DNA of 64,000 nt, from assembly GCA_022826485.1 (NCBI GenBank), contig JAJDUU010000014.1, positions 131,254 to 195,253 of the forward strand, written 5' to 3'. The stretch comes from Chloroflexota bacterium (GTDB lineage: Bacteria > Chloroflexota > UBA11872). Below, piece after piece: positions 1,262 to 62,284 of the stretch. The stretch's first letter is position 1. Each line of letters starts with the position of its first letter. The notes beneath the pieces were generated by a model. It was not told the DNA's origin. It saw nothing but the letters and a program-made list of their open reading frames with translations, and ran no database searches. Position numbers and translations under genes: made by a program.

Positions 1262-2190
1262 ATGACCCGGCCGTAGACCGCGGCGAGCTGCGGCTCGGCT
1301 CGCGCGTCTTCGCCTGGGGCGCGCGCACGTTCGTGATGGGCGTGCTCAACGTGACGCCGGACTCGTTCAGCGGGGACGGCGTCGCCAACGATGCCGACGC
1401 GCTGCATGCCCGCATCGACTCGCTGCTCGATGCGGCGCCCGACATCATCGACGTGGGCGGTGAGTCCACGCGGCCCGGCGCGGCGGCGGTTTCCGCGGAA
1501 CTGGAGATCGACCGCGTTGGTCCGGCGCTGGAGGCCCTGCGAGGGCGCGCGCCCGAAACGCCACTCTCGATCGACACACGCAAGGCCGCCGTGGCGCGCG
1601 CCGCGCTCGACCTGGGCGCGGTGATGGTGAACGACGTGACCGGCGGCACGCACGATCCCGAGATCCTCGATGTCGCCGCGAGAGCGGGGGCGGCCTTCGT
1701 CGTTACACACAACCGACGGGGCAACGTGCGGCGATCCGAGATCGGCCCGCACGTCGCAGCCGTCGCCTACGACGACCTGGTGCGCGACGTGTTCGGGGAC
1801 GGCGGGCGGCTGCTCGACCGGGCGCAGGCCGCCGGCATTGCCCGCGATCGCCTGCTCTTCGATCCGGGATTCGGCTTCGGCAAGTCGCCGGAGCAAAACG
1901 TTGACCTACTGCGGGAAATGTCGTCGTTGACTGCGCTCGGGGCGCCGCTAATGGTCGGCGTGTCGCGCAAGTCGTTTGTCGGCTACGTGCTCGGATTGCC
2001 GGCCGCTCAGCGGCTGGAGGGCTCGCTGGCGGCCGCGGTAATTGCCGTGGCCAACGGCGCGGATATGGTCCGGGTTCACGACGTGGAGGCCACGAGGCGA
2101 GCGCTGGCGATGGCCGACGCGATCTATCGCCCGGGTGCTTCGCCGGCCGGCGGGCGACGCGACGATGGATTCCAGCCTCCGCGGGAATGA
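1258..2190 (+). CDS. folP: Dihydropteroate synthase
   Basis: The translation contains VMGVLNVTPDSFSGDG, DIIDVGGESTRPGA, GVSRKSF and MVRVHDV, which are classic pterin-binding DHPS motifs. A GTG at 1258 overlaps the cupin stop, and the long table ORF 838..2190 is an upstream extension of this frame. Confidence 0.85.
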   Translation: MNDPAVDRGELRLGSRVFAWGARTFVMGVLNVTPDSFSGDGVANDADALHARIDSLLDAAPDIIDVGGESTRPGAAAVSAELEIDRVGPALEALRGRAPETPLSIDTRKAAVARAALDLGAVMVNDVTGGTHDPEILDVAARAGAAFVVTHNRRGNVRRSEIGPHVAAVAYDDLVRDVFGDGGRLLDRAQAAGIARDRLLFDPGFGFGKSPEQNVDLLREMSSLTALGAPLMVGVSRKSFVGYVLGLPAAQRLEGSLAAAVIAVANGADMVRVHDVEATRRALAMADAIYRPGASPAGGRRDDGFQPPRE

Positions 2191-2196
2191 CGAATC
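2167..2196. repeat. Isolated copy of a REP-like palindromic unit (ggattccagcctccgcgggaatgacgaatc), the reverse complement of the cgtcattcccgcggaggcgggaatc unit seen at 63.5 kb
   Basis: It is a near-perfect inverted repeat with the same core as the units at 57001-57030 and 63496-63520. It overlaps the folP 3' end and intergenic region and generates a spurious ...RGNDE... reading frame. Confidence 0.5.
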
Positions 2197-2281
2197 TGTA
2201 GAAACTGGCCTTCGAAGTTCTGCCCGCGTTGCCAGGCTTACGCGGCGTTCGTATGCTCAACCACTCCTTCGCGCACGCCTC

Positions 2282-3214
2282 ATGTCAGGGTGCCGCGCCC
2301 ACGTCGTGAATCGAGGTTCCGTGCGCACGGTGCTCCGCGGCCGCGACGGCCTGGAAGTGGTGATCAGCCCGGATGAGGCCTTCGTGCCCATCGGCGAGCG
2401 ACTCAACCCCACCAACAAGCCTCGGCTCCAGCGGGCCTACGACGAAGGCAACTGGGAATACGTCCAGCGTGACGCCACGCGGCAGGTCGCGGCGGGCGCC
2501 GCGGTCATCGACGTCAACACGGGTGATCCGCACCACGAGATCGAGAAGCGCAAGATGCGCGACGCCGTGCGCGCGGTGCAGGACGTGGTGGACGTGCCGG
2601 TGTCGATCGACTCTTACACGATCGACGTGCTGCTGGCGGGGCTCGAGGTCGCGCGGGGACGCCCGCTGGTGAACTCCGTCCCATTCGAGGCCGACTACAT
2701 GCAGGACTTGCTCCCGGCAATCGCCGAGCACGACGCCTGCATGATCGGCATGTGCACCAAGGGCGGCGCCGCGATGCCGGAGACGGCGGAGGAACGGGTC
2801 GAGAACGCGCGCGCGCTGGTGGCCAGCGCAGCGGAGCACGGCATTTCCGCCGACCGGATTGTGATCGACCCGGTGTGCCTGCCTGTGGGAGCAAACGACG
2901 TCTTTGGGCCAGGGCTGCTGGGCGCGATTCGCACGCTGCACCGAGAGGACGACCTGAACATGTCCATCGGACTCAGCAACGTGTCATTCGGGTTGCCGGC
3001 CCGACGCTCCCTCAACGCGGCGACCCTGCTCATGGCCATGGAAGCCGGCCTGACGGCGGCGATCCTGGATATGACCCACAAGGAAATCAGGCACGCGGTG
3101 CTTGCCGCCAACCTGATCCGCGGCCGCGATGATTTCTCCATGAACTGGATCTCCAACTACCGCGCGGAGCAGGCACGGGAAGAGGCGCGCAAGGCCAGGC
3201 GCGCCGGGGGCTGA
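2282..3214 (+). CDS. Pterin-binding domain methyltransferase (methyltetrahydrofolate:corrinoid methyltransferase, MtrH/MetH pterin-domain-like)
   Basis: It carries IGERLNPTNKP, the MetH/AcsE-type IGERxNxTG pterin signature, and a DHPS-like TIM barrel with VIDVNTG, SIDSY and LVNSV motifs. The ATG at 2282 is tentative. Confidence 0.65.
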   Translation: MSGCRAHVVNRGSVRTVLRGRDGLEVVISPDEAFVPIGERLNPTNKPRLQRAYDEGNWEYVQRDATRQVAAGAAVIDVNTGDPHHEIEKRKMRDAVRAVQDVVDVPVSIDSYTIDVLLAGLEVARGRPLVNSVPFEADYMQDLLPAIAEHDACMIGMCTKGGAAMPETAEERVENARALVASAAEHGISADRIVIDPVCLPVGANDVFGPGLLGAIRTLHREDDLNMSIGLSNVSFGLPARRSLNAATLLMAMEAGLTAAILDMTHKEIRHAVLAANLIRGRDDFSMNWISNYRAEQAREEARKARRAGG

Positions 3215-3215
3215 A

Positions 3216-4628
3216 CTAGCCGGCGGACCGCTGCGCCGCCTCCGTGACCGCGTCCGCCAGGCGGGCAAAGCCCATGCCGTTGCTGGCCTTCAGCAGCACG
3301 GCGTCGCCGGCCGCAAGCTCCCCGTGAAGCCACGCCGCCGCGGCGTCCACGGCCGCGGCGATTGACGCGGAAGACTCGGTGTCCGCGGGGATCACGTCAA
3401 CCGCTTCCAGACCCGCCGCACGGGCGCCCGAGGCGATATGGGCGGCGAGCGCGCCGACGCAGAGCAGCCGATCGATGCCGGCGGCATCCCGTCCCACCTG
3501 CTCATGAGCCGCCGGGCCATAGGCGCCCAGCTCGAACATGTCGCCCAGCACTGCAATGCGGCGCCCCGGGACGGATACGGCTCGCAGCGTGTCCAGGGCC
3601 ACCGCCATCGACGCGGCATTGGCGTTGTAAGTGTCGTCCAGCAACAGGCCGCCACCGGGTAGCGCTTCGAGCCGCATGCGGTGCGGCGCGGGCTGAAAGG
3701 CGCGCAGACCGTGGCAAGCCGTGGCGGGGTTCACGCCCAGCGCCCGAGCGGCCGCGAATGCGGCGCCGAAGGCCAAATCAACTGCGCCCGCCGTACCCGG
3801 GACGTCTACGCTGTCGCTAAAGCTGTCGGCCTCGATGTGAACGCGCGTCCCCGGCGGATCGGCCAGCAGTTCGCTGACTACTTGCACGTCCGCCGCGTCC
3901 GAGCGGCCAAACGACACCACCGGCCCTGGCGCGCGACGCCGCAACGCCTCGGACCAAGGGTCGTCGGCGTTCACGATGGCCGGTCCATGCTCCGGCAGGG
4001 CTTCGAAGAGCTCGCCCTTGGCCGTGGCGATGGCCTCCATCGAGCCGAACAGCCCCAGGTGCGCCCCGGCAATAGAGGTGATGACGCCGGCGTCCGGCTT
4101 GGCATAGCTGCAGTAGTGGGCAATTTCCCCGACGACCTGCGCGCCGATCTCGACAACCGCGTAGCGGTGCGCGGGCGTCAACCGCGACAGGGTGGCCGGC
4201 ACGCCCACCTCGGCATTCTCGCTGCGCTCGGTGGCGAGCGTGGGGCCTGCGGCGCTCAGGGCCGCCGCCAGGGCTTCCTTCGTGGTGGTCTTGCCGTTGC
4301 TGCCCGTGACGCCGACGAAGGTCGCCGACGAGAGCGCGCGCAGCGCACCCGCCAGCCGCTCGAACGCGGCCTGCGGCTCGGCGGCAACTACCTGCCGGCT
4401 CATTGGCTGATCCGGATCGGGCCGGGCGCACAGCACTGCCGCGGCGCCGCGGGCAAAGGCGTCGCCGATGAATTCGTGGCCGTCAACTCGGGCGCCGGGC
4501 AGCGCCACGAAGAGCATGCCGGGCTGAATGCGGCGGCTGTCGAAGTGCGCCGCGGTCATGGCGAGGTCGTCAGCGCCGTGTGGGACCGGCCGCTTGGCGG
4601 CCAGGGCGACGTCCGCCAGGGTGAACAT
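3216..4628 (-). CDS. murF: UDP-N-acetylmuramoyl-tripeptide--D-alanyl-D-alanine ligase
   Basis: The 470-aa ORF has the GVTGSNGKTTTKE P-loop and Mur ligase middle and C-terminal domains, ending in DAVLLKASNGMG. Confidence 0.9.
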   Translation of the reverse strand: MFTLADVALAAKRPVPHGADDLAMTAAHFDSRRIQPGMLFVALPGARVDGHEFIGDAFARGAAAVLCARPDPDQPMSRQVVAAEPQAAFERLAGALRALSSATFVGVTGSNGKTTTKEALAAALSAAGPTLATERSENAEVGVPATLSRLTPAHRYAVVEIGAQVVGEIAHYCSYAKPDAGVITSIAGAHLGLFGSMEAIATAKGELFEALPEHGPAIVNADDPWSEALRRRAPGPVVSFGRSDAADVQVVSELLADPPGTRVHIEADSFSDSVDVPGTAGAVDLAFGAAFAAARALGVNPATACHGLRAFQPAPHRMRLEALPGGGLLLDDTYNANAASMAVALDTLRAVSVPGRRIAVLGDMFELGAYGPAAHEQVGRDAAGIDRLLCVGALAAHIASGARAAGLEAVDVIPADTESSASIAAAVDAAAAWLHGELAAGDAVLLKASNGMGFARLADAVTEAAQRSAG

Positions 4629-5704
4629 CAGGCGTCGAGCCCGGGCGCCGCGTCACGAATGCGCCGTCTAGCGCCGGCGTCCAGGTCGAGACGCTCCACG
4701 GCGTCGTCGAAGACACGGAGATACCACCGCCGCCGCGCTGCGTACGTCGACGCACGATCTCTTGCCGACGTTGCGTGCTGGCGACCTTGCCGCACCGCGG
4801 CAGTGGCGGCATAGGTCAAGCTGCGCTCCGCCGCGGCGGCCCAGAATTCGTGGGCTAATTCAGCGACGCCTCCGACACTTGCGATCCGCGAGGCCTGGTC
4901 GCCGATAGCGTTCGCCGTGAGCCCGAACCCCGGAAACGTCAGGAGGTCCGCCGCGTCCAGCGCCGGCGCTGCTACCGCCAGCGTCTCCCAATCGATGACC
5001 GCCAGCCGTCCACCGGGACGCGGCATCAGGTTGAGCGGTGAGTATCCGTTGTGGACCACTTGCCGCGGCGCGCGGATGAGCGACCTGACGATGCCGGCCT
5101 CGAGGTCCCGCCAGGGGAGATCGGGCGCCAACGTTCGGGGTGCGGCGTCCGGCTCCGGGGCGGTCGATGGATTGCCGAGTCGGGCTGCGGCGATGGCAAG
5201 GCGTCGCCGCAGCGTGTCGCGCGTGATCCGGTCCAGATCGCTCTGGTACGCCAGCGCCCGGAGCATGCCCTGGTGGCGCGAGGCGACGTCGCGAAACGCC
5301 GCCAGCGTCTCAATTGCATGCTCCAACAGGCCGGTGCGCTCGCCGGCGTCGGCGGTGTCCAGTCGCTCGGCCAACGACTCGGCGCCCAGATCCTCCATGG
5401 CCACGGCGGCAAAGGCGTCGGGGGCCAGCAGAGCCCCGTGCGGGCGGGGAACCAATCCGGGCGCCTGGCGGCTGAGCAGGTCCAACGCCCGCTCCTCGCG
5501 CCGCCAGCGGTGGTGGTAGTAGCGGTCGACATCCGGTCGGTACACCTTGACGATCAGCGATGCAGGTCCAGAGCGAAGGCGCCAGATTTCGTGCCGTGCG
5601 TCGGCGGCAACGGAGTGCCAGGACCACGGGCCGCCCTCGCCGCTCGCCGCCAGGATCGCGCTCAGTCCGGTGCGCAGGTCGTCGTTCACGACCAGTGCGC
5701 TCAC
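4628..5704 (-). CDS. Aminoglycoside phosphotransferase (APH)/choline-kinase family kinase, possibly an AmgK-like anomeric MurNAc/GlcNAc kinase
   Basis: The C-terminal about 358 aa of table ORF 4628..6829 show an APH fold (VHNGYSPLNLM..., VIDWETLAVAAPALDAADLL). A GTG start overlaps the mraY stop, and its stop overlaps the murF ATG. Confidence 0.6.
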   Translation of the reverse strand: MSALVVNDDLRTGLSAILAASGEGGPWSWHSVAADARHEIWRLRSGPASLIVKVYRPDVDRYYHHRWRREERALDLLSRQAPGLVPRPHGALLAPDAFAAVAMEDLGAESLAERLDTADAGERTGLLEHAIETLAAFRDVASRHQGMLRALAYQSDLDRITRDTLRRRLAIAAARLGNPSTAPEPDAAPRTLAPDLPWRDLEAGIVRSLIRAPRQVVHNGYSPLNLMPRPGGRLAVIDWETLAVAAPALDAADLLTFPGFGLTANAIGDQASRIASVGGVAELAHEFWAAAAERSLTYAATAAVRQGRQHATSARDRASTYAARRRWYLRVFDDAVERLDLDAGARRRIRDAAPGLDA

Positions 5705-7032
5705 GTGGACGGTCGTTTCGGATCGGCGAGAATCGCGTCGAGGGTTGCGTTCAGCACGTGGGCGTTCATCGGCCGGTTGAGAAGACCGCGTTCCGAGGCC
5801 GCCTTGACCACATCCGCGTCGCCCACCACGCGTCGCCGTCGGGCCAGGAGCTGACCAAGCAGCGTGATTGGCCGGCCGTGAAACAGCAGCAAGAAGTCGC
5901 CGTCGGCGGCGACGAATGCCGGACGGGTCCAGGTGGCGGCGGCCCAGAACCCCGCGCTCACCGCCGCGGCGAGCGTAATCGCCAGCGCCGCCCACGCCGT
6001 TTCCGATAGCGCGGATGCGACGGCACAGAGGCTGGCAGTCACCGCCGTCGCCGCCCAGAATCCCAGCACGATCTTCTGCCGATTCAGGCCGACGATCTCC
6101 CAGTGGTAATGCAGCGGCGACGCCAGCAGGGGCAGCGGGAAACGCTGATGCGGAACCGGCGAGCCGTCCGGCAGTCGGGGATCGCGCCAGCGTCGGTAGA
6201 GCGGAACCAGAATCTTGGCTTGCAGCAGCGACGAAAGCCCCTCGAGCAGCAGGGGCGCGGCGATCACCGGCCACAGCAAATCGACGCCCGCCACGATTGC
6301 CGCGGCGGCTGAGGCCGCACCCAGCGTCAGGGCACCGCTGTCCCCGATATAGATGCTCGCCCGTCGCCGGGCGCCGCGATTCGCCGGCGACCACTCCGAG
6401 GGCAGATTCCAGACCAGGAGACCAGCGCCGATGGCCGCGATGCCGAGCGGCCAGCCGGCCTGGCCGACGCTGGCGGCAAGCCCGGCCGCCAGCGCGGCGC
6501 CCGCCGTCGCGAAGGCTACGGTGCCGGGTGTGAGGCCGTCCATGCCGTCGCTGAAGCTGGTCGCCAGCGTGGTTCCAAGGATGAGCGCGAGATACCAAAT
6601 GCTCAGCGGCACGTGCGCTCCCGATCCCAGCCAGTGCGCCATTGCGTAGGGCGATGCCGCGCCGGATTCGTGGGCGCCGGGGCCTACCACGAGCGCCGTT
6701 GCGCCGATGCTGAGAATGAGGGCGATGACCAGGTAGGCGCCCTCCGGAACGCCGCGACCGGTGCGCGTCTTGCGCAGGTCGTCCGCCAGCCCGAAGAGAA
6801 AGAACCCGGCCGCGCCGGCCAGCACCCACCAGGCGCTCGACGCGGTAGGGCCGGCCGACAACAGCGCCGCGGCGACGACCGCGGCGACCGCGGCCGCAAG
6901 TCCTCCCACGAGCGGCAGCTTGCCGGACACGCCGAGCGGCGCGGCGATCTGGTGCGCTCCCCGCTTGACCTCAGCCGACCGGAAGTGCGGCAGCAGGCGC
7001 CTGAGCGCGGCAGAGCCGCCCGCGGTGATCAC
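5701..7032 (-). CDS. mraY: Phospho-N-acetylmuramoyl-pentapeptide transferase with a C-terminal extension
   Basis: It has the DD motif (GLADDLRKT), DGMDGL, and the His-rich loop PLHYHWEIVGL...VLGFW, which corresponds to MraY HHHFE...RFW. About 110 extra residues follow at the C-terminus. Confidence 0.75.
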   Translation of the reverse strand: MITAGGSAALRRLLPHFRSAEVKRGAHQIAAPLGVSGKLPLVGGLAAAVAAVVAAALLSAGPTASSAWWVLAGAAGFFLFGLADDLRKTRTGRGVPEGAYLVIALILSIGATALVVGPGAHESGAASPYAMAHWLGSGAHVPLSIWYLALILGTTLATSFSDGMDGLTPGTVAFATAGAALAAGLAASVGQAGWPLGIAAIGAGLLVWNLPSEWSPANRGARRRASIYIGDSGALTLGAASAAAAIVAGVDLLWPVIAAPLLLEGLSSLLQAKILVPLYRRWRDPRLPDGSPVPHQRFPLPLLASPLHYHWEIVGLNRQKIVLGFWAATAVTASLCAVASALSETAWAALAITLAAAVSAGFWAAATWTRPAFVAADGDFLLLFHGRPITLLGQLLARRRRVVGDADVVKAASERGLLNRPMNAHVLNATLDAILADPKRPST

Positions 7033-7120
7033 GAAGGCGCAACCGGCCGCCAGGCCGATCGCCAGCCCAGGCTCTATGCGACCCTCCGACGTGTGGCGGG
7101 CGTCAGGGTTACGGTAGCAA

Positions 7121-8323
7121 TCAGCCGTGCCGCAGTCCCGCGCCGACGGACGCGTACACGTCGAGGATTTTGCCTATCTGTCGTCGCCACGAGAACTTGT
7201 GCTCCGCACGCGCTCGCAGGCGCTCACCGTATGCCCGGCGCGCGTCGGCGTCTCTCACCAGTCGCAGGATCTCACCGGCGAGCGCCGGCACCGACCCGCG
7301 CTCGGCCAGCCTGGCCTCGGGACCCAGAAATTCGGCCGCCACTCCACCCGCGTAGGCCACGGTCGGCAAGCCGGCGGCCATGTAGTTCAGCACCTTGCCG
7401 TTGCCTTCCGTTTTCGACCGCTTGGGCGCCACCGCCAGGTCGCAGAGCCTCAGGTGCGTAGGGGCTTGGGTGTAGGGAACTCGTCCCGTGAACGTCACGT
7501 AGTCGGCGAGGCCCGCCTGTCCCGCGGCGCGCTCGTATTCGGCGGCGTTGGGATAGCCCATGATCAAGAAATGCGTCCCCGGCTCGGCGTCAACCACCTC
7601 ACGCGCGGCGCGAATGAGGTCGCCGGTGCCCTGGTATTCCGCGAGCAGCCCCAGATAGCCGACGACCAGCCGGTTGGGCGGAATGCCAAGTTGCCGCCGC
7701 AGCGCCGCCAGCTCCGAGCCATCTTCGGCTGCGCGCGGTCGAAACCGCGACACGTCCACGCCGTCCGGAACGCTGACGATCCGTTCCGGCGGCCATGATT
7801 TGCGGGCGGCAAGCTGGCGCCTGGCGAATGCCGAGCTCGTAACGATGCAGTCGGCGGCGGACTCGGTGACGCGCTCGATGACGCCGAAGAACGGGACTCC
7901 GGGTCCGTCCGGCGAGAGGAATCGATGGTCGACCATCTCACTGGTCAGGCTTCCCTGGTAGTCGAGGACGAGCGGCACCCGCCGGGCGCGCGCGAGCGGC
8001 CATCCAATCGCGGCGCCCTCGTGCAGGTGGCCGTGCACCACGTCGATGGGTTCGCGCAGGCCGCGAGTCAGGACCAGTCCGGCCAGCAGCGGGTCGAGCA
8101 GCAGCTTGAGCCGGTGCGAGCCGATGTACGCGCTCGACTGGTGCCGAATCGCCGGCAGGCGCACCACGCGCAGTCCGTCCGGCGTGGCCCCGGTCGGATA
8201 GGTAAAAATTGTGACCGCGTGGCCCAATGCCTGCAGGGCACGGGCCTCCTCCAGGATCCGCACGTGACACCCGTAGTCCGCGAAGAACCCGGTCGGCGCG
8301 ATCATCGCGATGTGCAGGCTCAT
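7121..8323 (-). CDS. Glycosyltransferase, GT-B fold (GT4 family)
   Basis: The 400-aa product has an N-terminal GT4_N region (MIAPTGFFADYGCHVRILEEARAL) and an E-x7-E region near the C-terminus. Its start is divergent from tsaE. Confidence 0.75.
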   Translation of the reverse strand: MSLHIAMIAPTGFFADYGCHVRILEEARALQALGHAVTIFTYPTGATPDGLRVVRLPAIRHQSSAYIGSHRLKLLLDPLLAGLVLTRGLREPIDVVHGHLHEGAAIGWPLARARRVPLVLDYQGSLTSEMVDHRFLSPDGPGVPFFGVIERVTESAADCIVTSSAFARRQLAARKSWPPERIVSVPDGVDVSRFRPRAAEDGSELAALRRQLGIPPNRLVVGYLGLLAEYQGTGDLIRAAREVVDAEPGTHFLIMGYPNAAEYERAAGQAGLADYVTFTGRVPYTQAPTHLRLCDLAVAPKRSKTEGNGKVLNYMAAGLPTVAYAGGVAAEFLGPEARLAERGSVPALAGEILRLVRDADARRAYGERLRARAEHKFSWRRQIGKILDVYASVGAGLRHG

Positions 8324-8337
8324 CGCCCCCGCCTTGC

Positions 8338-8844
8338 GTGGAGCGTGACTTGACCTCCCCAACGGCCGCCCACATCCGCATCGTGTCCGACGGGCCTGAC
8401 GCTACGCGGGCCGTCGGCGCCGGCATTGGTCGGGCCGCACGGCCGGGAGACCTGGTCGCGCTCCAGGGGGAACTGGGCGCGGGCAAGACCGTCGTCGCCC
8501 AGGGCGTCGCGCAAGGGCTTGGGGTTGTCGAGGGCGTCACGTCGCCGACCTATGTACTCGTGGCGGTCTACGGGTCGGGCCGGGTGCGACTGCAACATGT
8601 TGATCTCTACCGCCTGGCGGGAGCGCTCGACGTGGATTCGATCGACTGGGAGGACCTGCTCGACGAGCCGGCGGTCACGGTCGTGGAGTGGCCCGAACGC
8701 GCGGGCGAGCGAATGCCGGATGACCGGTTGCTCGTATCGATCCGGGCGGGGTCGACCACCCGGCGTACGCTGACGATTTCAGCCGGCGGACCTCGCAGTC
8801 GAGAACTCCTCGCAGCCGTGGGGGCGGGGATGGCGGCGCGATGA
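8338..8844 (+). CDS. tsaE: tRNA threonylcarbamoyladenosine biosynthesis ATPase TsaE
   Basis: It carries GDLVALQGELGAGKTVVAQG (Walker A) and ...TSPTYVLV. The GTG start is tentative, and its stop overlaps the tsaB ATG. Confidence 0.8.
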   Translation: MERDLTSPTAAHIRIVSDGPDATRAVGAGIGRAARPGDLVALQGELGAGKTVVAQGVAQGLGVVEGVTSPTYVLVAVYGSGRVRLQHVDLYRLAGALDVDSIDWEDLLDEPAVTVVEWPERAGERMPDDRLLVSIRAGSTTRRTLTISAGGPRSRELLAAVGAGMAAR

Positions 8845-9473
8845 CGATGGTACTCGCGATCGACACCACAGGGACCGCGCCCGCCATGGCGCTGTTGCGC
8901 GGCGACGAGGTGGGGTCCGCCTGGCAGGGCGATGCCGCGCAGACGCCGCTGCTCGACGGGCTGCGCGCCGTGCTCGCCGGCCAGGGTCTGGCGATGCCGG
9001 CACTGCGTGAAGACTTGAGCGCCGTCGCCGCGGCCATGGGCCCGGGCCGCTATGCGCGCCTGCGCGCCGGAGTGGCGTTTGCGAAGGGACTGGCGACCGG
9101 ATGGGGCGTACCCTTCATCGGCGTGCGATCGGCCGCGGCCGTGGCCCATGCCGCCGGCGAACGCGTCGGGCCGATCGTCATCCCGGCCGGGCGCAGCCGC
9201 CTCTATTGCTGGACCGGTGAGCCGGGTGCGCCGCTCAGCCCCGCGGTGGATCCGAGCGCGCTCGTCGACTGCCTTGGATCCGGAGCCTCAGTGGCAGGTG
9301 ACGTCGACGACGCAACGGCGGCGGCGTTGCGGGCTGCCGGGCTGCGACTGAAGCGAATCCAGCCAATCGCGGTCGCCGAGTCCGTGGGCCGCCTCGCCGG
9401 CGGCTGCGATCGATCCGCTGTTGGCGCGGAAGTGGCCCGCCCCATCTATGTCCCGGCGGCCGACCATGGCTGA
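8841..9473 (+). CDS. tsaB: tRNA t6A biosynthesis protein TsaB (inactive Kae1 paralog)
   Basis: The ORF begins MVLAIDTTGTAP... and is the YeaZ-like N-terminal actin-fold domain, placed between tsaE and rimI. Confidence 0.8.
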   Translation: MTMVLAIDTTGTAPAMALLRGDEVGSAWQGDAAQTPLLDGLRAVLAGQGLAMPALREDLSAVAAAMGPGRYARLRAGVAFAKGLATGWGVPFIGVRSAAAVAHAAGERVGPIVIPAGRSRLYCWTGEPGAPLSPAVDPSALVDCLGSGASVAGDVDDATAAALRAAGLRLKRIQPIAVAESVGRLAGGCDRSAVGAEVARPIYVPAADHG

Positions 9474-10077
9474 CGGCCCGGAGATCGTCATCGAGCCGAT
9501 GCAGCTCGCGGACCTGCCCCAGGTGCGCCGCATCGAAAAGGCCTCGTTCTCCGTGCCCTGGCCGCGCGACTCGTATCGACGGGAGATCATGGATAACCAG
9601 CGGGCGTGGTACTTCGTGGCGCGCCGCCCCGACGTGGAACCGCCGCCGCAGCCGCCGCCACGGCGATTCCCCTTCAACCTGTGGCCGCGCGCCCCGGTGC
9701 CGGGCAACGACATCGTTGCGTTCGGTGGGATGTGGCTCATGATCGACGAGTCGCACATCACGACCATCGCCGTCGATCCCGAATATCGCCGGCGTGGGTT
9801 CGCCGAGGCGCTGATCATCGAGATGGCCAAGCTCAGCCGGCTGCGCGGCGCCACGCGCATCACGCTCGAGGTGCGCATGAGCAATCGGGGGGCGCAGAAT
9901 CTCTATCGCAAATACGGCTTCGTGGACCATGGGGTGCGACCGCGCTACTACAGCGACGACCGGGAGGACGCGCTGATCATGTGGAGCGAACCCATCCACG
10001 GGCCGGACTTCCACGCACGCCTCACGCGCAACGAGCGGGATCTTTCGGAGCGCCTCAATTGGGCCGCGCGCCTGTGA
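9466..10077 (+). CDS. rimI: Ribosomal-protein-alanine N-acetyltransferase (GNAT)
   Basis: It has GNAT motif A (RRRGFAEALI) and the LYRKYGF region. It is embedded in the tsa cluster as is usual. Confidence 0.8.
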   Translation: MADGPEIVIEPMQLADLPQVRRIEKASFSVPWPRDSYRREIMDNQRAWYFVARRPDVEPPPQPPPRRFPFNLWPRAPVPGNDIVAFGGMWLMIDESHITTIAVDPEYRRRGFAEALIIEMAKLSRLRGATRITLEVRMSNRGAQNLYRKYGFVDHGVRPRYYSDDREDALIMWSEPIHGPDFHARLTRNERDLSERLNWAARL

Positions 10078-11135
10078 CGGTCACGGACGGGCCGCTGATC
10101 GCCGCGATCGAGACTTCCTGTGACGACACCTCCGTGGCGGTGGTGCGGGGCGGACGCGAGGAGTTGGCGCTCAAGAGCCAGACCCAAATCGAGCCGCACG
10201 CCGCGATGGGCGGCATCGTGCCGGAAGCCGCTGCGCGCATTCACGTCGAGGCCATCGACGCCGTGTGGAACGCGTGCCTGACGACAGCCGGGGTTGACTC
10301 GGCGGAACTTGACGCGCTGGCCGTGACGCAGGGACCGGGCCTCCCCGGCTCACTGCTCGTGGGGCTCGGCTTCGCGCAGGGTCTGGCGGCGGCCGTGGAC
10401 TGCCCACTCATTCCGGTGAACCACCTGGAAGGCCACTTCGCCTCGCCATGGCTCAACGACGGCGATCCGCCGGAGTTTCCGTTGGTGGCGCTGATCGTGT
10501 CCGGCGGCCACACCGAGCTTGTGTTCGGCGCCGCGCCCGGCGAGTACCGGCTCATCGGGCGCACGCGGGACGACGCCGCCGGCGAGGCCTTCGACAAGGT
10601 GGCGCGGATGCTCGGACTGGAATATCCGGGCGGCCCCGCCATCCAGCGAGCGGCGGCGGGACGCGACAGGTCCCCCTTCGAGCTGCCGCGCGCGTGGCTG
10701 CCCGGCACCAGCGACTTCAGCTTCAGCGGACTCAAGACTGCGGTGCGACGGTTGGTTCACGACGAGTTAGGACCAGTCGAGGCGGCGCGGATTGGTGCGG
10801 CGGACAACGGCGCGGCCGGCATCGACGACGCCGACTTCGTGGCGGATGTGGCGCACGCCTTCGAGGTCTCCGTGGTCGACGTCCTCGTGACCAAGACCGT
10901 GCGCGCGGCCCGGCAGATGCGCGCCGCCACGATCACGCTCACCGGCGGCGTGGCGGCGAATGCGAGGCTGCGCGCGGCGCTGGACGCGGCCTCCCCGGTT
11001 CCCGTCCAGGTGCCGGCGCTCAAGCACTGCGTCGACAACGCCAGCATGATCGCGGTGGCGGGCGCTTGGCGCCTGGCGCGCGGCGAGGTGGCGAACGGCC
11101 CGCTCGAACCCGAACCGGGCCTGGCGCTGGCCTAG
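10074..11135 (+). CDS. tsaD: tRNA N6-adenosine threonylcarbamoyltransferase TsaD
   Basis: The translation begins LIAAIETSCDDTSVAVV and contains LAVTQGPGLPGSLLVG and VSGGHT. A GTG start overlaps the rimI stop. Confidence 0.9.
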   Translation: MTVTDGPLIAAIETSCDDTSVAVVRGGREELALKSQTQIEPHAAMGGIVPEAAARIHVEAIDAVWNACLTTAGVDSAELDALAVTQGPGLPGSLLVGLGFAQGLAAAVDCPLIPVNHLEGHFASPWLNDGDPPEFPLVALIVSGGHTELVFGAAPGEYRLIGRTRDDAAGEAFDKVARMLGLEYPGGPAIQRAAAGRDRSPFELPRAWLPGTSDFSFSGLKTAVRRLVHDELGPVEAARIGAADNGAAGIDDADFVADVAHAFEVSVVDVLVTKTVRAARQMRAATITLTGGVAANARLRAALDAASPVPVQVPALKHCVDNASMIAVAGAWRLARGEVANGPLEPEPGLALA

Positions 11136-25844: not shown

Positions 25845-26783
25845 TTATAGGTCGGCTTGCCGTGTGCGCGTGCGCCAGGCTTCGGTTGGATACGCCCCTT
25901 CAGCCGCCGCGCCGACCACGTAGGTCTCACATGAGTGGCCGCTGTCGAGGCAGGCATCGGACATGGAGCTGGCCACCGAGAGATTGCGGTCGCGCGGACC
26001 GAAGGCAATGACGGTGGGGCCCGACCCACTCAGGGCCACCCCGTAGGCGCCCGCGTCGAGCGCCGCCGCCATGCAGGGCTCCAGCGCGGGATTGAGCGCG
26101 GAGCGGTAGGGCTGATGCAAGCGGTCGGTCATGGCCTCCCGGAACAGGTCGAAACGACCGTGGCTCACGGCGCCGGCCATCAGCGCCGCGCGGGCGAGGT
26201 TGGCAACGGCGTCGGCCCTCGGGACCTGTTCGGGCAGGACCTGCCGCGCTCGGTGCGTGGGCACCCGGTAGCCCGGCACGACCAGTACGATCCCGACGGC
26301 TGCCGGGAATTCGAGTCGCAGCCAGGGCAGGTCGGGTCCGTCCGGGACGGTGATGACCATGCCGCCCAGCAACGCCGGCGCCACGTTGTCCGCATGCCCC
26401 TCGAGCTCGGCCGCTCGCCGCAGCAGCTCATCCTGGGGCACCTCGAGGTCGAAGGCGAGCGTGGCCGCCACCAGCCCGCCGACAATGGCGCTGGCCGAGC
26501 TGCCCAGGCCGCCCTGCGCGGGAATGATTCGCCGAGCGTGCAGCCGATAGGGACCGGCCGCCGTCGGCGCCAGGGAGCGGAACGCGCGAAAGGCCAGATT
26601 GCGCCGGACGTCTCGCGGCACGAACTCGGCGAACTTTCCGCTGGCCTCGATGTGATCGTGACTGCTGGGCTCGAACCGATAGGTGTTTCGCAGCTCCAGC
26701 GCCAACCCGAGCGCATCGAAGCCGGCCCCGAGATTGCCCGACGATGCCGGGACGGCAACTTCGGCCCAGCCTGGGCCGCTCAC
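25845..26783 (-). CDS. thrB: Homoserine kinase
   Basis: It has a GHMP kinase fold with AEVAVPASSGNLGAGFD and GLGSSAS motifs. A GTG start overlaps the rodA stop. Confidence 0.8.
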   Translation of the reverse strand: MSGPGWAEVAVPASSGNLGAGFDALGLALELRNTYRFEPSSHDHIEASGKFAEFVPRDVRRNLAFRAFRSLAPTAAGPYRLHARRIIPAQGGLGSSASAIVGGLVAATLAFDLEVPQDELLRRAAELEGHADNVAPALLGGMVITVPDGPDLPWLRLEFPAAVGIVLVVPGYRVPTHRARQVLPEQVPRADAVANLARAALMAGAVSHGRFDLFREAMTDRLHQPYRSALNPALEPCMAAALDAGAYGVALSGSGPTVIAFGPRDRNLSVASSMSDACLDSGHSCETYVVGAAAEGAYPTEAWRTRTRQADL

Positions 26784-27946
26784 GGTCTTGGCGGCGACTC
26801 CGGGCGGGCCGCCATTCGTCTCACACTCGACACCCACCAGACGCCCTGCTGTCGGTGCGGCGCGGCCGTCCGATGCGCATTGATGCTGAGCAGGATGCCA
26901 ATGGCCGCCAGCGTGACCACCAGCGAGTTGCGCCCGAAACTGAGCAGCGGGAGCGTGATCCCCGTCACCGGCATCAGGCCCACATTCATTCCAATGTTGA
27001 CGAAAGACTGAAAGAACAGCATGCCCGCAATGCCGATGGCCAGGTAGCGGCCAAAGTCATCGCGCGCCCGAATCGAAATGATCACGGCCTGGGCAAGCAA
27101 GATGGTGAAGAACATGATGACGCCCAGGGCGCCGACGAATCCCAGCTGCTCGCCCAGCACGGCGAAGATGAAATCGGTATCGCGGACGCGCAGAAACTCG
27201 AGTTGCGACTGCGTGCCCTGGCCGATTCCCTGCCCCCACCAGCCGCCCGAGCCGATGGAGATGCGCGCCTGCAGCACGTTATATCCGGCGCCAAGCGGAT
27301 CGCTCCCTGGATCCAAGAACGCGACGAAGCGCTCCCGCATGTAGTCCTGCGCAAAGAACCAGGCGAAGGGGAAGGCGGCCAGGGCCATCCCCGCGGGAAT
27401 CAGCGCGTGCCACCAGCGCGCGCCGGCGACGAACACCATCGCCAACCAAATCGCGACGAACACCAACGCCGAGCCCAGGTCCGGCTCGATGAACACCAGC
27501 GCCGCGGGCACCAGCACGATGAGCAGACTCAGCAGCAGCGTGCGAATGGAACGGACGCGTTCGCCGCGCCGCGCCAGAAATCGCGCCAGAAAGATGATGA
27601 CGGCGAGCTTCATGATCTCGGACGGCTGAATCACGATGGGACCCACCACGAACCAGCGTTGGGCGCCCAGACTGGCGTCGCCGAACACCACCACGGCGGC
27701 GACCAGGATCGTGCCGAGAATGAATGCTGGCAGCGCCACGGCATGAAGCAGGCGATAGTCCAGGAACGCCATGACGAGCGCGGCCGCGAGCCCGATGGCC
27801 ACGAACACGCCCTGCTGCACCGCCTTGTGGTCAAGGCCCGTCTGGCCGGGATCGCCCGAGGTGGAGAGGATCAGAATTCCAGCCGAAACCAACGCAATCG
27901 AAGGAATGATGACGGCGAGATCGAAGCGCCGCAGGGCGTGCGTCAT
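26780..27946 (-). CDS. rodA: SEDS-family peptidoglycan glycosyltransferase RodA
   Basis: It is a 10-TM FtsW/RodA family protein and lies downstream of mrdA with an ATGA overlap. Confidence 0.85.
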   Translation of the reverse strand: MTHALRRFDLAVIIPSIALVSAGILILSTSGDPGQTGLDHKAVQQGVFVAIGLAAALVMAFLDYRLLHAVALPAFILGTILVAAVVVFGDASLGAQRWFVVGPIVIQPSEIMKLAVIIFLARFLARRGERVRSIRTLLLSLLIVLVPAALVFIEPDLGSALVFVAIWLAMVFVAGARWWHALIPAGMALAAFPFAWFFAQDYMRERFVAFLDPGSDPLGAGYNVLQARISIGSGGWWGQGIGQGTQSQLEFLRVRDTDFIFAVLGEQLGFVGALGVIMFFTILLAQAVIISIRARDDFGRYLAIGIAGMLFFQSFVNIGMNVGLMPVTGITLPLLSFGRNSLVVTLAAIGILLSINAHRTAAPHRQQGVWWVSSVRRMAARPESPPRP

Positions 27947-59153: not shown

Positions 59154-62105
59154 CTAGGACGGCAACTCTGGCTCTTTCGCCCCGTGGATGGACGGGTCGC
59201 TGGCGAGGAGGGTGCGGAGGCGGGAGATGGTGGTTAGGGCCTGATCGTCGAGGGCGAGCATGTCGGTGGTGATGCGTTGGTCGAGATCGATGCGGTCGGG
59301 GTCGACGGCGCAGCGGTGGAAGGATTCGAAGGTGCGACCCTGGAAGTCGCGCCAGATGGACTGGGCTTCGTCGAGCTGCCAAGGCTGAAGTTCGCGCACG
59401 TCGAGTGTTGGCAGCGTTTCGAGCATTCCCTTGTTGCCGCGACCTCTTCCGTACTGCGATCTGCTGGCGTGATTGGCGTGGAGCATTAGTCCTGCCGTGG
59501 AGTTGCACCAAAGGGCGAGTGCGACCTCTTGCCGGGAGTGGTTCGCGGGAATGCCCTCTTGGATTTTCATGGAAAACCATTGACTCACGCCGAGCGCCCG
59601 AGCAATGGTTCGGGTCGCCATGATTCGTTGTGAGTTGTACCTGACGTCGCGGGTCATCTGAAGCATGCCGGCCTGGGACCATATCGGCGGATGGTCGCGG
59701 CGATTTGAGGGATAGAGGCGCGCATTTGGCTCAGAGACAAACCCCTGGTGTACTTTCTGCGACTGCGCCCAAAGCGCCGGGAATTGCGCTTGTGCATCCC
59801 ACCCGTGATAGGCGTCGAACGCCCCGAGAGAGCCGCGAATCTGGCGGTCCTGCGGACCTACGTTGCAGACGCTTCCCAGTGGCTCGATAGGAAGCTGGGC
59901 GATGACTCGCGAGCCGTCGGCCGCCCAAAGCTCGCCGCGTTCCAGCGCGGCGGCGAACTGGCCGGTCTGGCCCTGCCGCCAGCGGGAGGCGGCCCACGAT
60001 CTCGCGTCCACCGGCCCGTCCAACAGCTCTCCCCATTGCTCGCCACCGACGATCAAGGGAATACCGCCGATAGGCGGACCGTCGGAGCGGTGCAAGGGCG
60101 CCTCTGCCGCTACATTGATAGCGTTGACCAGCGCCAGTGCGTCGGTGTCGCGATAGGGCGCGCGCCAGAGGTTGACGAACCGGCCCCGGCCCGATGGCGT
60201 CTCGTCTTCGCGCAGTCGACGGGCGACTACTAGGGCCTCGGCAATGTCGGTGTCGTAGGACATCGAGCGCAGCTTGGGATCGTGAGACGAGACTACGAAC
60301 TCAAGCAAGTAGCGGTCGGCGAGCATCTGGCGTACGTCCCGCCATGACTCCCCGGCCAATGCGGTCACCGGCAGCACCAGCGCGACTCGGCCGCCGGGTT
60401 TCACGAGCCGGTCGGCTAGAACGGTGAACGACGCGCCATGCCCTGCCGTCTGGTTGGCCGGCGTGCCCCTAATGAGGTCGGAGGTGCGCCGGGCCACGGC
60501 TTGCTGCGCCTCCGCGTCGCCTGCGGGCAGGTCCAGCACCCGCGCCAGCGCCGCGCCCTTGCCGCCGTCGCTGCCCCGCCGGGTGAAGGGCGGATTGCTG
60601 ATGACCAAGTCAGCGCGCGGCGGTCGAACCTCGTCGCCTGCGCCACCCTTTGCGCCGATTTGTTCGCGCGTGGCTGAGAATGATGATTGGGCTACAGGTG
60701 CTTGCAACCAGTCCAGCGAGCCAAGGTGAATCACGTCTTGGCTCACTGATGGCGCCTCGGGCTCCACGCCGGCCGCTTCGAAGCCTTGCTCGGTGGCATC
60801 GAACACGGATGCTCCCCGCTCCATGCCCATGCGCAGGCTGTGCAGTTGCATTTGGGTGAAGCCCACAGAGGGCGACATGGCGGCAAGCGTGGCGGCGGTG
60901 AGGTGGATGGCGGCCTGCACCACGTCGGCGCCGAATAGGGTGTGCTCGACGAGTGCTTGATGCAGTGCCTCGTCGGTCTCCTGGTTTCCGGCTTCCGCCG
61001 GAATGACGGAAGCCGGCGCGGTCGCGCGGTTTTGGACGATCTGTTGATAGGCCGCCATGAGCAGGGTGCCGGTGCCGCAGGCGGGGTCGACCACGCGCAG
61101 TTGGCTCAGGTTCTCGGCGTCGCTCCAGTCCACGCTCGGCCAGCGTTCCGGCGCTAACGCCAGCCCCGCCAACAAGGTGGCGGCCGGAATGCTGGTGTAG
61201 TAAGCGGCCAGCAGTTTGCGGTCGGCGATCAACCGGTTGAAGATGCGTCCGGCCAGGTCATGGCGACCCACCGCGCCCATGCCCAGCAGTTGCGCGGCGG
61301 TTTCCGCGCACTCTTCCAGCACAGCGGCAGCCTCGACGTCCGAAAGCTCGGACACAACATCGCGGGCCATGCTGAAGATGGGGTAGTAGTCAATGTCGAG
61401 GATGGCGTCCCACATGGTGAGCAGCCGCAAGCGCGAGAAGACGCCATTGCGGCGAGAGGCGCTGGTCGGCTGAATGGCTGCGTCAACACTGGACAGCCGC
61501 TCCTGGAACACCATGGCGTTGGTGACGACCAGCGCGGCCATGTGGGCCACCTCATCGCTCGGCGGTGCGTTGAAGATGCCGGCCACGCGTGCCAGCGTGC
61601 CGGGTGAGCTATAGAGGCGCGAGCCGGCGCTGCGGACGCCATCGTCGAGGACTTTGACCGCTTCTTCGAGGTTGCTGGCCGGTGGGGCGGCTCGCGCCGC
61701 CGCGTTGCCGAGCTCGACGAAGCTGCCACTGACCCTTGGGCCCGCGGTGCCGTCGATCCGCCACTCGCGCCACGTGAGGCTAGCGCCGGCCAGACGTTCA
61801 TAGAGGTGTTGTTGGCTGATTGCACGCAAGTGCACGGGAACGGCGACGGCGGCGGCGATTTGCACGGGCTGGCCATCGATCTCCAGGCCCAACCGCGCCA
61901 GCGCGTCGGCGTCCACGGTGGCCGCCGGTTCGAACTCTATTTCAAGCACGACCGGGCCTTCGGGCCGCCGCAGAACGATGTCCGGTCTGGCAGGTCCGCG
62001 TATGGTCTCGGCGGCCGTTGACAGCCCCAGGCGATCCCTCAGCAGTTGCGCCAGCACGACGTTAATGACTTCTTCTCGGCTGCGTGTGCTGGCGGCGGCA
62101 GTCAT
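59154..62105 (-). CDS. Large single-polypeptide gamma-class N6-adenine DNA methyltransferase with an MmeI-like type IIG/IIL restriction-modification architecture (N-terminal nuclease-like region, MTase, C-terminal putative target-recognition domain). A BREX PglX-like role is not excluded.
   Basis: It has motif I VVDPACGTGTLLMAAY and motif IV LVISNPPF about 145 aa downstream, which gives the gamma order. It also has a post-IV RVALVLP strand and a C-terminal region of about 480 aa with no recognisable enzymatic motif. The N-terminal RPDIVLRRPEGPVVLEIEFE resembles a PD-x(n)-(D/E)xK core with Glu in place of Lys. The ATG at 62105 is favoured over 62183. GC is about 60%. Confidence 0.7.
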   Translation of the reverse strand: MTAAASTRSREEVINVVLAQLLRDRLGLSTAAETIRGPARPDIVLRRPEGPVVLEIEFEPAATVDADALARLGLEIDGQPVQIAAAVAVPVHLRAISQQHLYERLAGASLTWREWRIDGTAGPRVSGSFVELGNAAARAAPPASNLEEAVKVLDDGVRSAGSRLYSSPGTLARVAGIFNAPPSDEVAHMAALVVTNAMVFQERLSSVDAAIQPTSASRRNGVFSRLRLLTMWDAILDIDYYPIFSMARDVVSELSDVEAAAVLEECAETAAQLLGMGAVGRHDLAGRIFNRLIADRKLLAAYYTSIPAATLLAGLALAPERWPSVDWSDAENLSQLRVVDPACGTGTLLMAAYQQIVQNRATAPASVIPAEAGNQETDEALHQALVEHTLFGADVVQAAIHLTAATLAAMSPSVGFTQMQLHSLRMGMERGASVFDATEQGFEAAGVEPEAPSVSQDVIHLGSLDWLQAPVAQSSFSATREQIGAKGGAGDEVRPPRADLVISNPPFTRRGSDGGKGAALARVLDLPAGDAEAQQAVARRTSDLIRGTPANQTAGHGASFTVLADRLVKPGGRVALVLPVTALAGESWRDVRQMLADRYLLEFVVSSHDPKLRSMSYDTDIAEALVVARRLREDETPSGRGRFVNLWRAPYRDTDALALVNAINVAAEAPLHRSDGPPIGGIPLIVGGEQWGELLDGPVDARSWAASRWRQGQTGQFAAALERGELWAADGSRVIAQLPIEPLGSVCNVGPQDRQIRGSLGAFDAYHGWDAQAQFPALWAQSQKVHQGFVSEPNARLYPSNRRDHPPIWSQAGMLQMTRDVRYNSQRIMATRTIARALGVSQWFSMKIQEGIPANHSRQEVALALWCNSTAGLMLHANHASRSQYGRGRGNKGMLETLPTLDVRELQPWQLDEAQSIWRDFQGRTFESFHRCAVDPDRIDLDQRITTDMLALDDQALTTISRLRTLLASDPSIHGAKEPELPS

Positions 62106-62284
62106 GCTCGAATCGTTCTCGACCGCTGTAGTTTCGTTGAGAGTAGTACGCCTGTGCGTGGCTGGGGATAGTCGGGCGGGCAACCACCAGGGTTGCCCCC
62201 ACTCGGACTTGCATGCGAACTGCTTCTAGCCAACGGTGTAGATTCAGCTATGGGAAGCCACGTCATGCGCAAGACGACAGTCCG

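Follow-up and report, generated by a model that had tools for sequence, protein, structure and literature searches.

Introduction

MraY, the phospho-MurNAc-pentapeptide translocase that carries out the first membrane step of cell-wall synthesis by forming lipid I, is an essential enzyme and a major antibiotic target, and the control of flux through it is an active question. Here we describe a gene of the aminoglycoside phosphotransferase (APH) family that lies between a divergent mraY and murF in a Chloroflexota bacterium (GTDB lineage Bacteria; Chloroflexota; UBA11872). The DNA analysed, hereafter the window, is a stretch of 64,000 nucleotides (assembly GCA_022826485.1, contig JAJDUU010000014.1, positions 131,254 to 195,253 of the forward strand). 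The initial annotation of this DNA suggested that the APH-like protein is a candidate AmgK, that is, an anomeric kinase acting on N-acetylmuramic acid (MurNAc) or N-acetylglucosamine (GlcNAc) in peptidoglycan recycling, with a regulatory or lipid-linked role as its fallback. We find that the constant genomic partner of the gene is MraY, not MurU or MurF, and the sequence evidence makes an accessory or regulatory subunit of MraY a more likely role than a salvage kinase.

Results

A conserved gene coupled to both of its neighbours

The APH-like gene belongs to a unit of four genes encoding, in order, a GT-B glycosyltransferase, an MraY-like protein, the APH-like protein and MurF (Table 1). Sequence, Pfam family and homologues confirm, as first annotated, an APH-family gene of about 358 aa; it lies on the minus strand. 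A longer open reading frame (ORF) at 4628-6829 was rejected as an over-extension, because G+C content at third codon positions (GC3) is 0.81 over the gene as given in Table 1 and 0.57 in the same-frame part upstream, and because homologues begin at the place of the GTG at 5704. These homologues form 93 clusters at 44–94% identity, all the named ones coming from Chloroflexota metagenome-assembled genomes, and their alignment contains many invariant residues; hence this is a real conserved gene and not a chance ORF.

The coupling to both neighbours through overlapping stop and start codons, also part of the initial annotation, can be read directly from the sequence. On the upstream side, the APH-like gene starts with the GTG of a GTGA whose last three letters, TGA, end the MraY-like gene; on the downstream side, it ends with the TGA of a TGATG, one base of which also belongs to the ATG of murF. 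We agree that a kinase at such a position is unusual. The placement in a cell-wall cluster stands insofar as peptidoglycan-precursor genes adjoin the kinase-like gene on both sides, but the cluster is this four-gene unit rather than a canonical dcw cluster, and it is flanked by tsaE-tsaB-rimI-tsaD and by two pterin-binding genes. Of the two neighbours as originally named, murF is regular, whereas 'mraY' is very divergent.

Table 1. Features of the four-gene unit, in window coordinates, with the evidence for each
Feature	Position	Strand	Evidence
APH-fold, AmgK-related kinase-like gene, 358 aa, GTG start, soluble product	4628..5704	-	Pfam, GC3, homologues, AlphaFold2 model, hhalign
Divergent MraY-type phospho-MurNAc-pentapeptide translocase, 443 aa as called	5701..7032	-	PF00953 (Glycos_transf_4) 47 bits; TIGR00445 71 bits; catalytic motifs; AlphaFold2 model
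Family-specific C-terminal extension of MraY-like protein: 11th transmembrane helix (345-368) and small domain (372-436)	5725..6000	-	Hydropathy, AlphaFold2 model, conservation
Overlap GTGA (MraY-like stop / APH-like start)	5701..5704	-	Read from sequence
Overlap TGATG (APH-like stop / murF start)	4626..4630	-	Read from sequence
Degenerate catalytic loop H218-N219-G220-Y-S-P-L-N225	5030..5053	-	Sequence and profile alignments
Lys53, beta3 ATP-binding lysine in 'IVKVY', kept	5546..5548	-	Family alignment
Asp238 of 'IDWET', equivalent of the Mg-binding DFG Asp, kept	4991..4993	-	Family alignment
murF (UDP-MurNAc-tripeptide--D-Ala-D-Ala ligase), 470 aa	3216..4628	-	TIGR01143 348 bits, cutoff 289; all three Mur ligase domains
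GT4-family glycosyltransferase of GT-B fold, opening the cluster	7121..8362	-	Pfam Glycos_transf_1 and Glyco_trans_4_4

Linkage to MraY and fusion in Armatimonadota

Conservation of the neighbourhood was assessed in 32 loci from species-representative genomes, all Chloroflexota metagenome-assembled genomes. The order glycosyltransferase, MraY-like, APH-like, MurF is kept in 32/32 wherever the contig extends. No Chloroflexota locus examined separates the MraY-like from the APH-like gene, and their stop and start codons usually overlap; in L001, L003, L007, L041, L042 and L043 they likewise overlap by 4 nt or 1 nt or abut directly. In each close-clade locus reaching that far, the glycosyltransferase gene is found upstream of the MraY-like gene (directly in most), and it has that place in L007 and L008 too; murF follows the APH-like gene in all closely related loci reaching that far, but not in distant loci. 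In a relative at 34% identity the cluster persists and is followed by a MurF-alanine racemase fusion, and in relatives at 26–30% identity only the MraY-like/APH-like pair is kept, its codons overlapping or abutting, while the downstream gene differs. In one locus (L047) the order is inverted, APH-like before MraY-like, and the pair is still adjacent amid unrelated fatty-acid oxidation genes. In the marine relative L007, the gene after the APH-like gene encodes an 841-aa fusion of a Mur ligase with alanine racemase (5708-8233), and a second Mur ligase gene follows (9125-10537), the one closest to the window MurF.

The same two components occur as a single protein in another phylum. When 1.84 billion representatives were searched exhaustively with the family profile, only 44 proteins fell below E 1e-10, and among these are proteins of 925–1013 aa with MraY at the N-terminus and an APH-like domain at the C-terminus. 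This fusion family comprises at least 94 clusters in Armatimonadota, with the architecture MraY, transmembrane helix, TPR, kinase-like domain, and its MraY part scores 175–184 bits on TIGR00445. The window pair aligns with one fusion (P0121) from end to end, the MraY-like protein matching residues 25–443, C-terminal tail included, and the APH-like protein residues 637–968. The fusions, which are of roughly 980 aa (range 920–1030 aa) and carry the names 'phosphotransferase' or 'phospho-N-acetylmuramoyl-pentapeptide-transferase', thus show homology to both window genes; they have in common with the window pair the segment after MraY and the additional transmembrane helix, and their kinase-like domains fall in the same clade as the window protein. 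They differ from the window pair in being one polypeptide, in having a TPR or coiled linker of about 300 aa and a Glu at the catalytic position, in a far more canonical MraY part, and in an FHA-domain gene upstream. The last of these was found directly upstream of the fusion in two loci (51% identical), at 1305-1751 in L006 and 7678-8875 in L044. The FHA-domain gene of L044 is itself preceded by a RIO1-like gene. This arrangement in Armatimonadota hints at phospho-signalling around MraY.

A divergent MraY with an additional helix and tail

The MraY-like protein contains the motifs DD..K, SDGxDGL, N..P, GDSGAL, E and H.H, placed by alignment to MraY structures 9zno, 8g01 and 4j72, and this catalytic set is invariant in 32 family members. 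An AlphaFold2 model (predicted local distance difference test, pLDDT, 88.7) has MraY structures as its best Foldseek matches (TMt 0.65–0.74), ahead of DPAGT1. The score on PF00953 is 47 bits and that on TIGR00445 is 71 bits, below the curated cutoff of 192. Judged by its motifs and its predicted fold, the gene encodes a real but divergent MraY. An 88%-identical relative is labelled 'hypothetical protein' at NCBI. Since the MraY-like protein fails the TIGR00445 cutoff, surveys of Chloroflexota peptidoglycan genes that rely on it would miss the MraY of this lineage and can wrongly score MraY as absent; TIGR00445 is one of the search models listed in PMC10608941.

The protein is extended at its C-terminus by an 11th transmembrane helix and a small tail domain of three strands and two helices, modelled with pLDDT of about 85–92, in which W363, R370, P371, H385, G386, R387 and N423 of the extension as a whole are conserved. 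Its counterpart in P0121 is the segment after MraY, with which it can be aligned. The membrane topology of canonical MraY is known, and because the extra helix follows the canonical core, the tail is predicted to be cytoplasmic. Homologues of the MraY-like protein begin about 11 residues earlier (MAIGLAAG...), in the stretch that corresponds to 7033-7065 on the minus strand. At that starting point the window has a CTG, and from there to the GTG at 7032 it offers no ATG, GTG or TTG. The gene may begin about 11 codons further upstream than called, and the first transmembrane helix as called may be incomplete.

An APH fold with a degenerate catalytic loop

The kinase fold of APH type given in the initial annotation is borne out on several counts. 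The protein passes the Pfam gathering threshold for APH (PF01636; 56.8 bits, E 3.6e-15, threshold 23.2 bits), its AlphaFold2 model is a bilobal kinase fold (pLDDT 89.5, predicted TM-score 0.90), and hydropathy indicates no transmembrane segment. The best Foldseek match is APH(3')-Ia (E 2e-8), with APH(4)-Ia, MTR kinase, LicA and FN3K also found; these matches are generic, with TM-scores of 0.45–0.6 and 12–18% identity in the structural alignments. With the family profile, the best sequence match in the PDB is to corramycin phosphotransferase (8agy, E 0.007), over the N-lobe alone. A PDB search with the single sequence gave an antibody as its sole match, which was judged spurious. None of the NCBIfam resistance-kinase models matches the window protein, and database names of its relatives are likewise generic ('phosphotransferase', 'aminoglycoside phosphotransferase family protein', 'hypothetical protein'). 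The family has invariant blocks of its own: HRWRREER, QSDLDR and ERSLTYAAT.

Characterised APH-family kinases, anomeric sugar kinases included, depend on the Asp of an H-x-D motif. The catalytic loop of the present family has the consensus V-V-H218-N219-G220-F/Y-S-P-L-N225, and profile alignments match G220 with the catalytic Asp of H-x-D-x4-N in APH(2'')-IIa (3ham, HND..NN) and LicA (4r77, HID..EN). HNGYSPLN also aligns with HRDFQSRN of the AmgK-like protein P0326 in hhalign, again with G220 opposite Asp, and with HRDYQSTN of a MurU-AmgK-like fusion (P0217) in BLASTP. H218 and N219 are invariant in the close family, where position 220 is Gly save for one Ala. Among wider standalone relatives (23–49% identity) this position is Ser, Gly or Ala and never Asp, being mostly Ser in the distant ones, with one Ala; over the roughly 120 standalone relatives as a whole, Gly and Ser are the residues that occupy it, apart from these Ala. 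In the Armatimonadota fusions its equivalent is Glu (49/49 sequences). N225, the second metal ligand, varies between N, H and S in distant members.

The residues expected to bind nucleotide and magnesium are much more strictly kept. K53, the helix-C Glu E70 and D238 are invariant in 97 sequences across all three clades, and the counterpart of D238 in APH(2'')-IIa, LicA and AmgK-like proteins is the Asp of IDF/IDW. Position 158 (D158 here) is likewise acidic in all three clades; the idea that this residue was a compensatory gain in the standalone clade was rejected, the fusions being acidic there too. From its sequence, then, the APH-like protein appears to keep the nucleotide/Mg site but to be without the general base used by characterised APH-family kinases. 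Separately, a large group of APH-family proteins of about 325 aa (P0140-P0238) has H-G-E in place of the catalytic-loop H-x-D; its tested members are without an NCBIfam family match, and it may represent an uncharacterised family that uses Glu.

AmgK is the nearest family, not the identity

Comparisons with AmgK were made against AmgK-like stand-ins, none of them authenticated: P0326, P0139 and P0171, which score 120–130 bits on NF045759, and the fusion P0217. P0326 is without a MurU neighbour, and its PDB relative, 3csv, is unnamed. P0217 is a single protein of 606 aa that joins a MurU-like nucleotidyltransferase to an AmgK-like kinase.

The NCBIfam models for AmgK are NF045759 and NF045698, with curated equivalog cutoffs of 550 and 500 bits, and the window protein gives no match to either at E<=0.01 or even E<=1. 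Five of 23 wider-family members match NF045759 (best E 1e-12), and it is the sole kinase-family match of the Armatimonadota fusions, at 32–40 bits against 550. More sensitive comparisons do reveal the relationship: hhalign of the family profile with P0326 reaches a probability of 97.1% (E 5e-11) along 185 columns, spanning residues 99–299, BLASTP with the MurU-AmgK-like fusion gives E 2e-7, and a rough neighbour-joining tree, made without bootstrap from near-saturated distances, shows the AmgK-like group as the sister of the MraY-associated clade as a whole. With AmgK the window protein has in common the APH fold, a tie to peptidoglycan precursors and the local motifs MEDLG, PRR.VH, IDW/IDF, D.A.LL and FW.AA.R. 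It differs in reaching neither model, in Gly for the catalytic Asp (HNG.SPLN...IDWE against HRD..S.N...IDFQ), in an N-lobe that hhalign could not align, in having invariant blocks of the family's own, and in a partner that is MraY, not MurU. By these comparisons, AmgK-type kinases are the closest known family of the APH-like protein, yet it is no member of it.

A scan of roughly 36 window ORFs brought up no MurU-like nucleotidyltransferase or other NTP-transferase gene, and in those related loci that have gene tables the genes called up to about 10 kb away include none. The AmgK proposal survives as a statement of nearest kinship and not of function. Position 220, never Asp in the standalone family, speaks against a role in MurNAc salvage, and such a role does not explain the invariant partnership with MraY, fusions included; the fallback, regulatory or lipid-linked, fits better.

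Other features of the window

The GT4 glycosyltransferase has weak MshA/BshA-like matches. The two pterin-binding genes are in tandem on the plus strand (838-2190 and 2042-3214), one folP-like and one MtrH/CdhD-like, convergent on murF, and the pair is also kept near the cluster in related loci. Further along the window are purine genes (12.6–25.5 kb) and an mreBCD-PBP2-rodA block (26.8–32.4 kb), which is closed by a GHMP-family kinase gene directly 3' of rodA (25845-26837, minus strand). An ORF of 1009 aa (59154-62183, minus strand) has a faint N6_Mtase match (E 3.7e-6) and may encode a large methyltransferase or restriction-type protein.

Discussion

A putative kinase-fold subunit of MraY

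The reading that we prefer, and to which we give about an even chance, is that the APH-like protein is a subunit of MraY with a kinase fold, able to bind nucleotide but impaired in catalysis, and that it serves to regulate or scaffold the enzyme. It would be made together with MraY by way of the overlapping stop and start codons and dock on the cytoplasmic face of MraY or on its tail. There it would bind nucleotide and, given its AmgK ancestry, possibly a MurNAc-type ligand as well, and act as a non-phosphorylating, pseudokinase-like regulator or scaffold of lipid I synthesis. In the lineage of the window it may also link the product of MurF to MraY.

Several observations weigh against this reading. 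Physical association with MraY in the window organism is deduced from coupling and from the fusion, and adjacency and fusion also join enzymes of one pathway, not only subunits. The strict conservation of K53, E70 and D238 is equally expected of a working enzyme. The sister fusion clade is acidic at the catalytic position (Glu, 49/49), so the ancestor may have been active, and the invariant acidic residue at 158 could conceivably substitute for the lost Asp. Finally, neither an FHA-domain gene nor a Hanks-type kinase gene lies beside the window cluster among the ORFs scanned.

The principal rival is an active but non-canonical kinase or ATPase acting on a substrate of the MraY step, either undecaprenol (for C55-P supply) or a sugar of MurNAc/GlcNAc type, in which D158 or assistance from the substrate would replace the Asp. 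The invariance of K53, E70, D238 and H218, the acidic position 158 in all three clades, the Glu of the sister fusions and the kinship with AmgK-like proteins would all suit such an enzyme, and tight coupling to MraY fits substrate supply. Against this, known APH-family kinases need the H-x-D Asp, which is Gly or Ser across the standalone clade, the second metal ligand is variable in distant members, and a precedent for an APH-fold polyprenol kinase was not found. We regard it as rather improbable, at perhaps half the weight of the preferred reading.

The other two alternatives are poorly supported. A genuine AmgK, phosphorylating MurNAc or GlcNAc at C1 for MurU salvage and fosfomycin bypass as the initial annotation proposed, would account for the remote homology to AmgK-like proteins, for the weak NF045759 matches of some relatives and for the location in a peptidoglycan-precursor cluster; it is nonetheless very unlikely in view of the unmatched AmgK models, the replacement of the catalytic Asp by Gly, the want of a MurU-like gene among the window ORFs scanned and the conserved partnership with MraY. 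Slightly less likely still is an antibiotic-modifying kinase, either of aminoglycoside type or inactivating nucleoside inhibitors of MraY, kept beside the target that it protects. In its favour, the best structural matches are APH(3')-Ia and APH(4)-Ia, the best PDB profile match is 8agy (over the N-lobe only), and APH-like kinases that phosphorylate capuramycin-type MraY inhibitors exist; but the TM-scores are generic, no NCBIfam resistance model is matched and the catalytic Asp is gone. Moreover, synteny kept across 26–94% identity, together with fusion to MraY in another phylum, is the pattern of a housekeeping gene and not of a mobile resistance gene.

A bolder extension of the preferred reading, which we put forward tentatively and think on balance doubtful, is that MraY in Chloroflexota and Armatimonadota is a two-part enzyme, in which a tethered, AmgK-derived ATP-binding domain responds to ATP or to a precursor of MurNAc type and thereby controls the making of lipid I. 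The tether would be the dedicated 11th helix and tail in the one case and the fusion in the other, and the Armatimonadota version would be wired to FHA phospho-signalling. If this were true, the first membrane step in building the cell wall would have a checkpoint that was not known before.

Comparison with known systems

With the aminoglycoside, choline and MTR kinases of PF01636 the APH-like protein has in common a score above the gathering threshold, the bilobal fold and the conserved Lys, Glu and DFG-like Asp; it is set apart from them by its low identity (12–18%), the missing catalytic Asp and the lack of a match to any NCBIfam resistance-kinase model. Set beside AmgK, it suggests that a sugar kinase scaffold of this type may have been repurposed. 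We found no paper tying MraY to a pseudokinase, APH-family or AmgK-like partner. What would be new here is a kinase-fold accessory module on MraY, as yet undescribed, whereas such modules on lipid-linked peptidoglycan proteins are of a known kind. A dedicated kinase-fold partner that is kept in both phyla, and in one is fused to MraY, would represent a novel means by which the lipid I step is regulated or assembled, and the MraY-like and APH-like proteins offer a concrete, testable pair.

The closest functional analogue is the pseudokinase domain of the mycobacterial flippase MviN (MurJ). In M. tuberculosis this domain recruits FhaA and so restrains peptidoglycan synthesis; it is of Hanks type (ActPs3), does not bind ATP and acts as a regulatory scaffold (PMC12599244). 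In both systems a kinase-fold module without the catalytic Asp is joined to a lipid-linked peptidoglycan membrane protein, by operon coupling in the window and by fusion in Armatimonadota, and in Armatimonadota alone the likeness extends to a module fused to the enzyme with an FHA-domain gene adjacent. The differences are that the present protein has an APH/AmgK-type fold with its ATP/Mg residues kept, that its partner is MraY and not a flippase, and that in the window it is a separate polypeptide with no FHA-domain gene among the ORFs scanned. The comparison is one of analogy and not of membership, since the MviN domain is of Hanks type and without ATP binding; within that limit, a kinase-fold partner of MraY would parallel the pseudokinase module of mycobacterial MviN.

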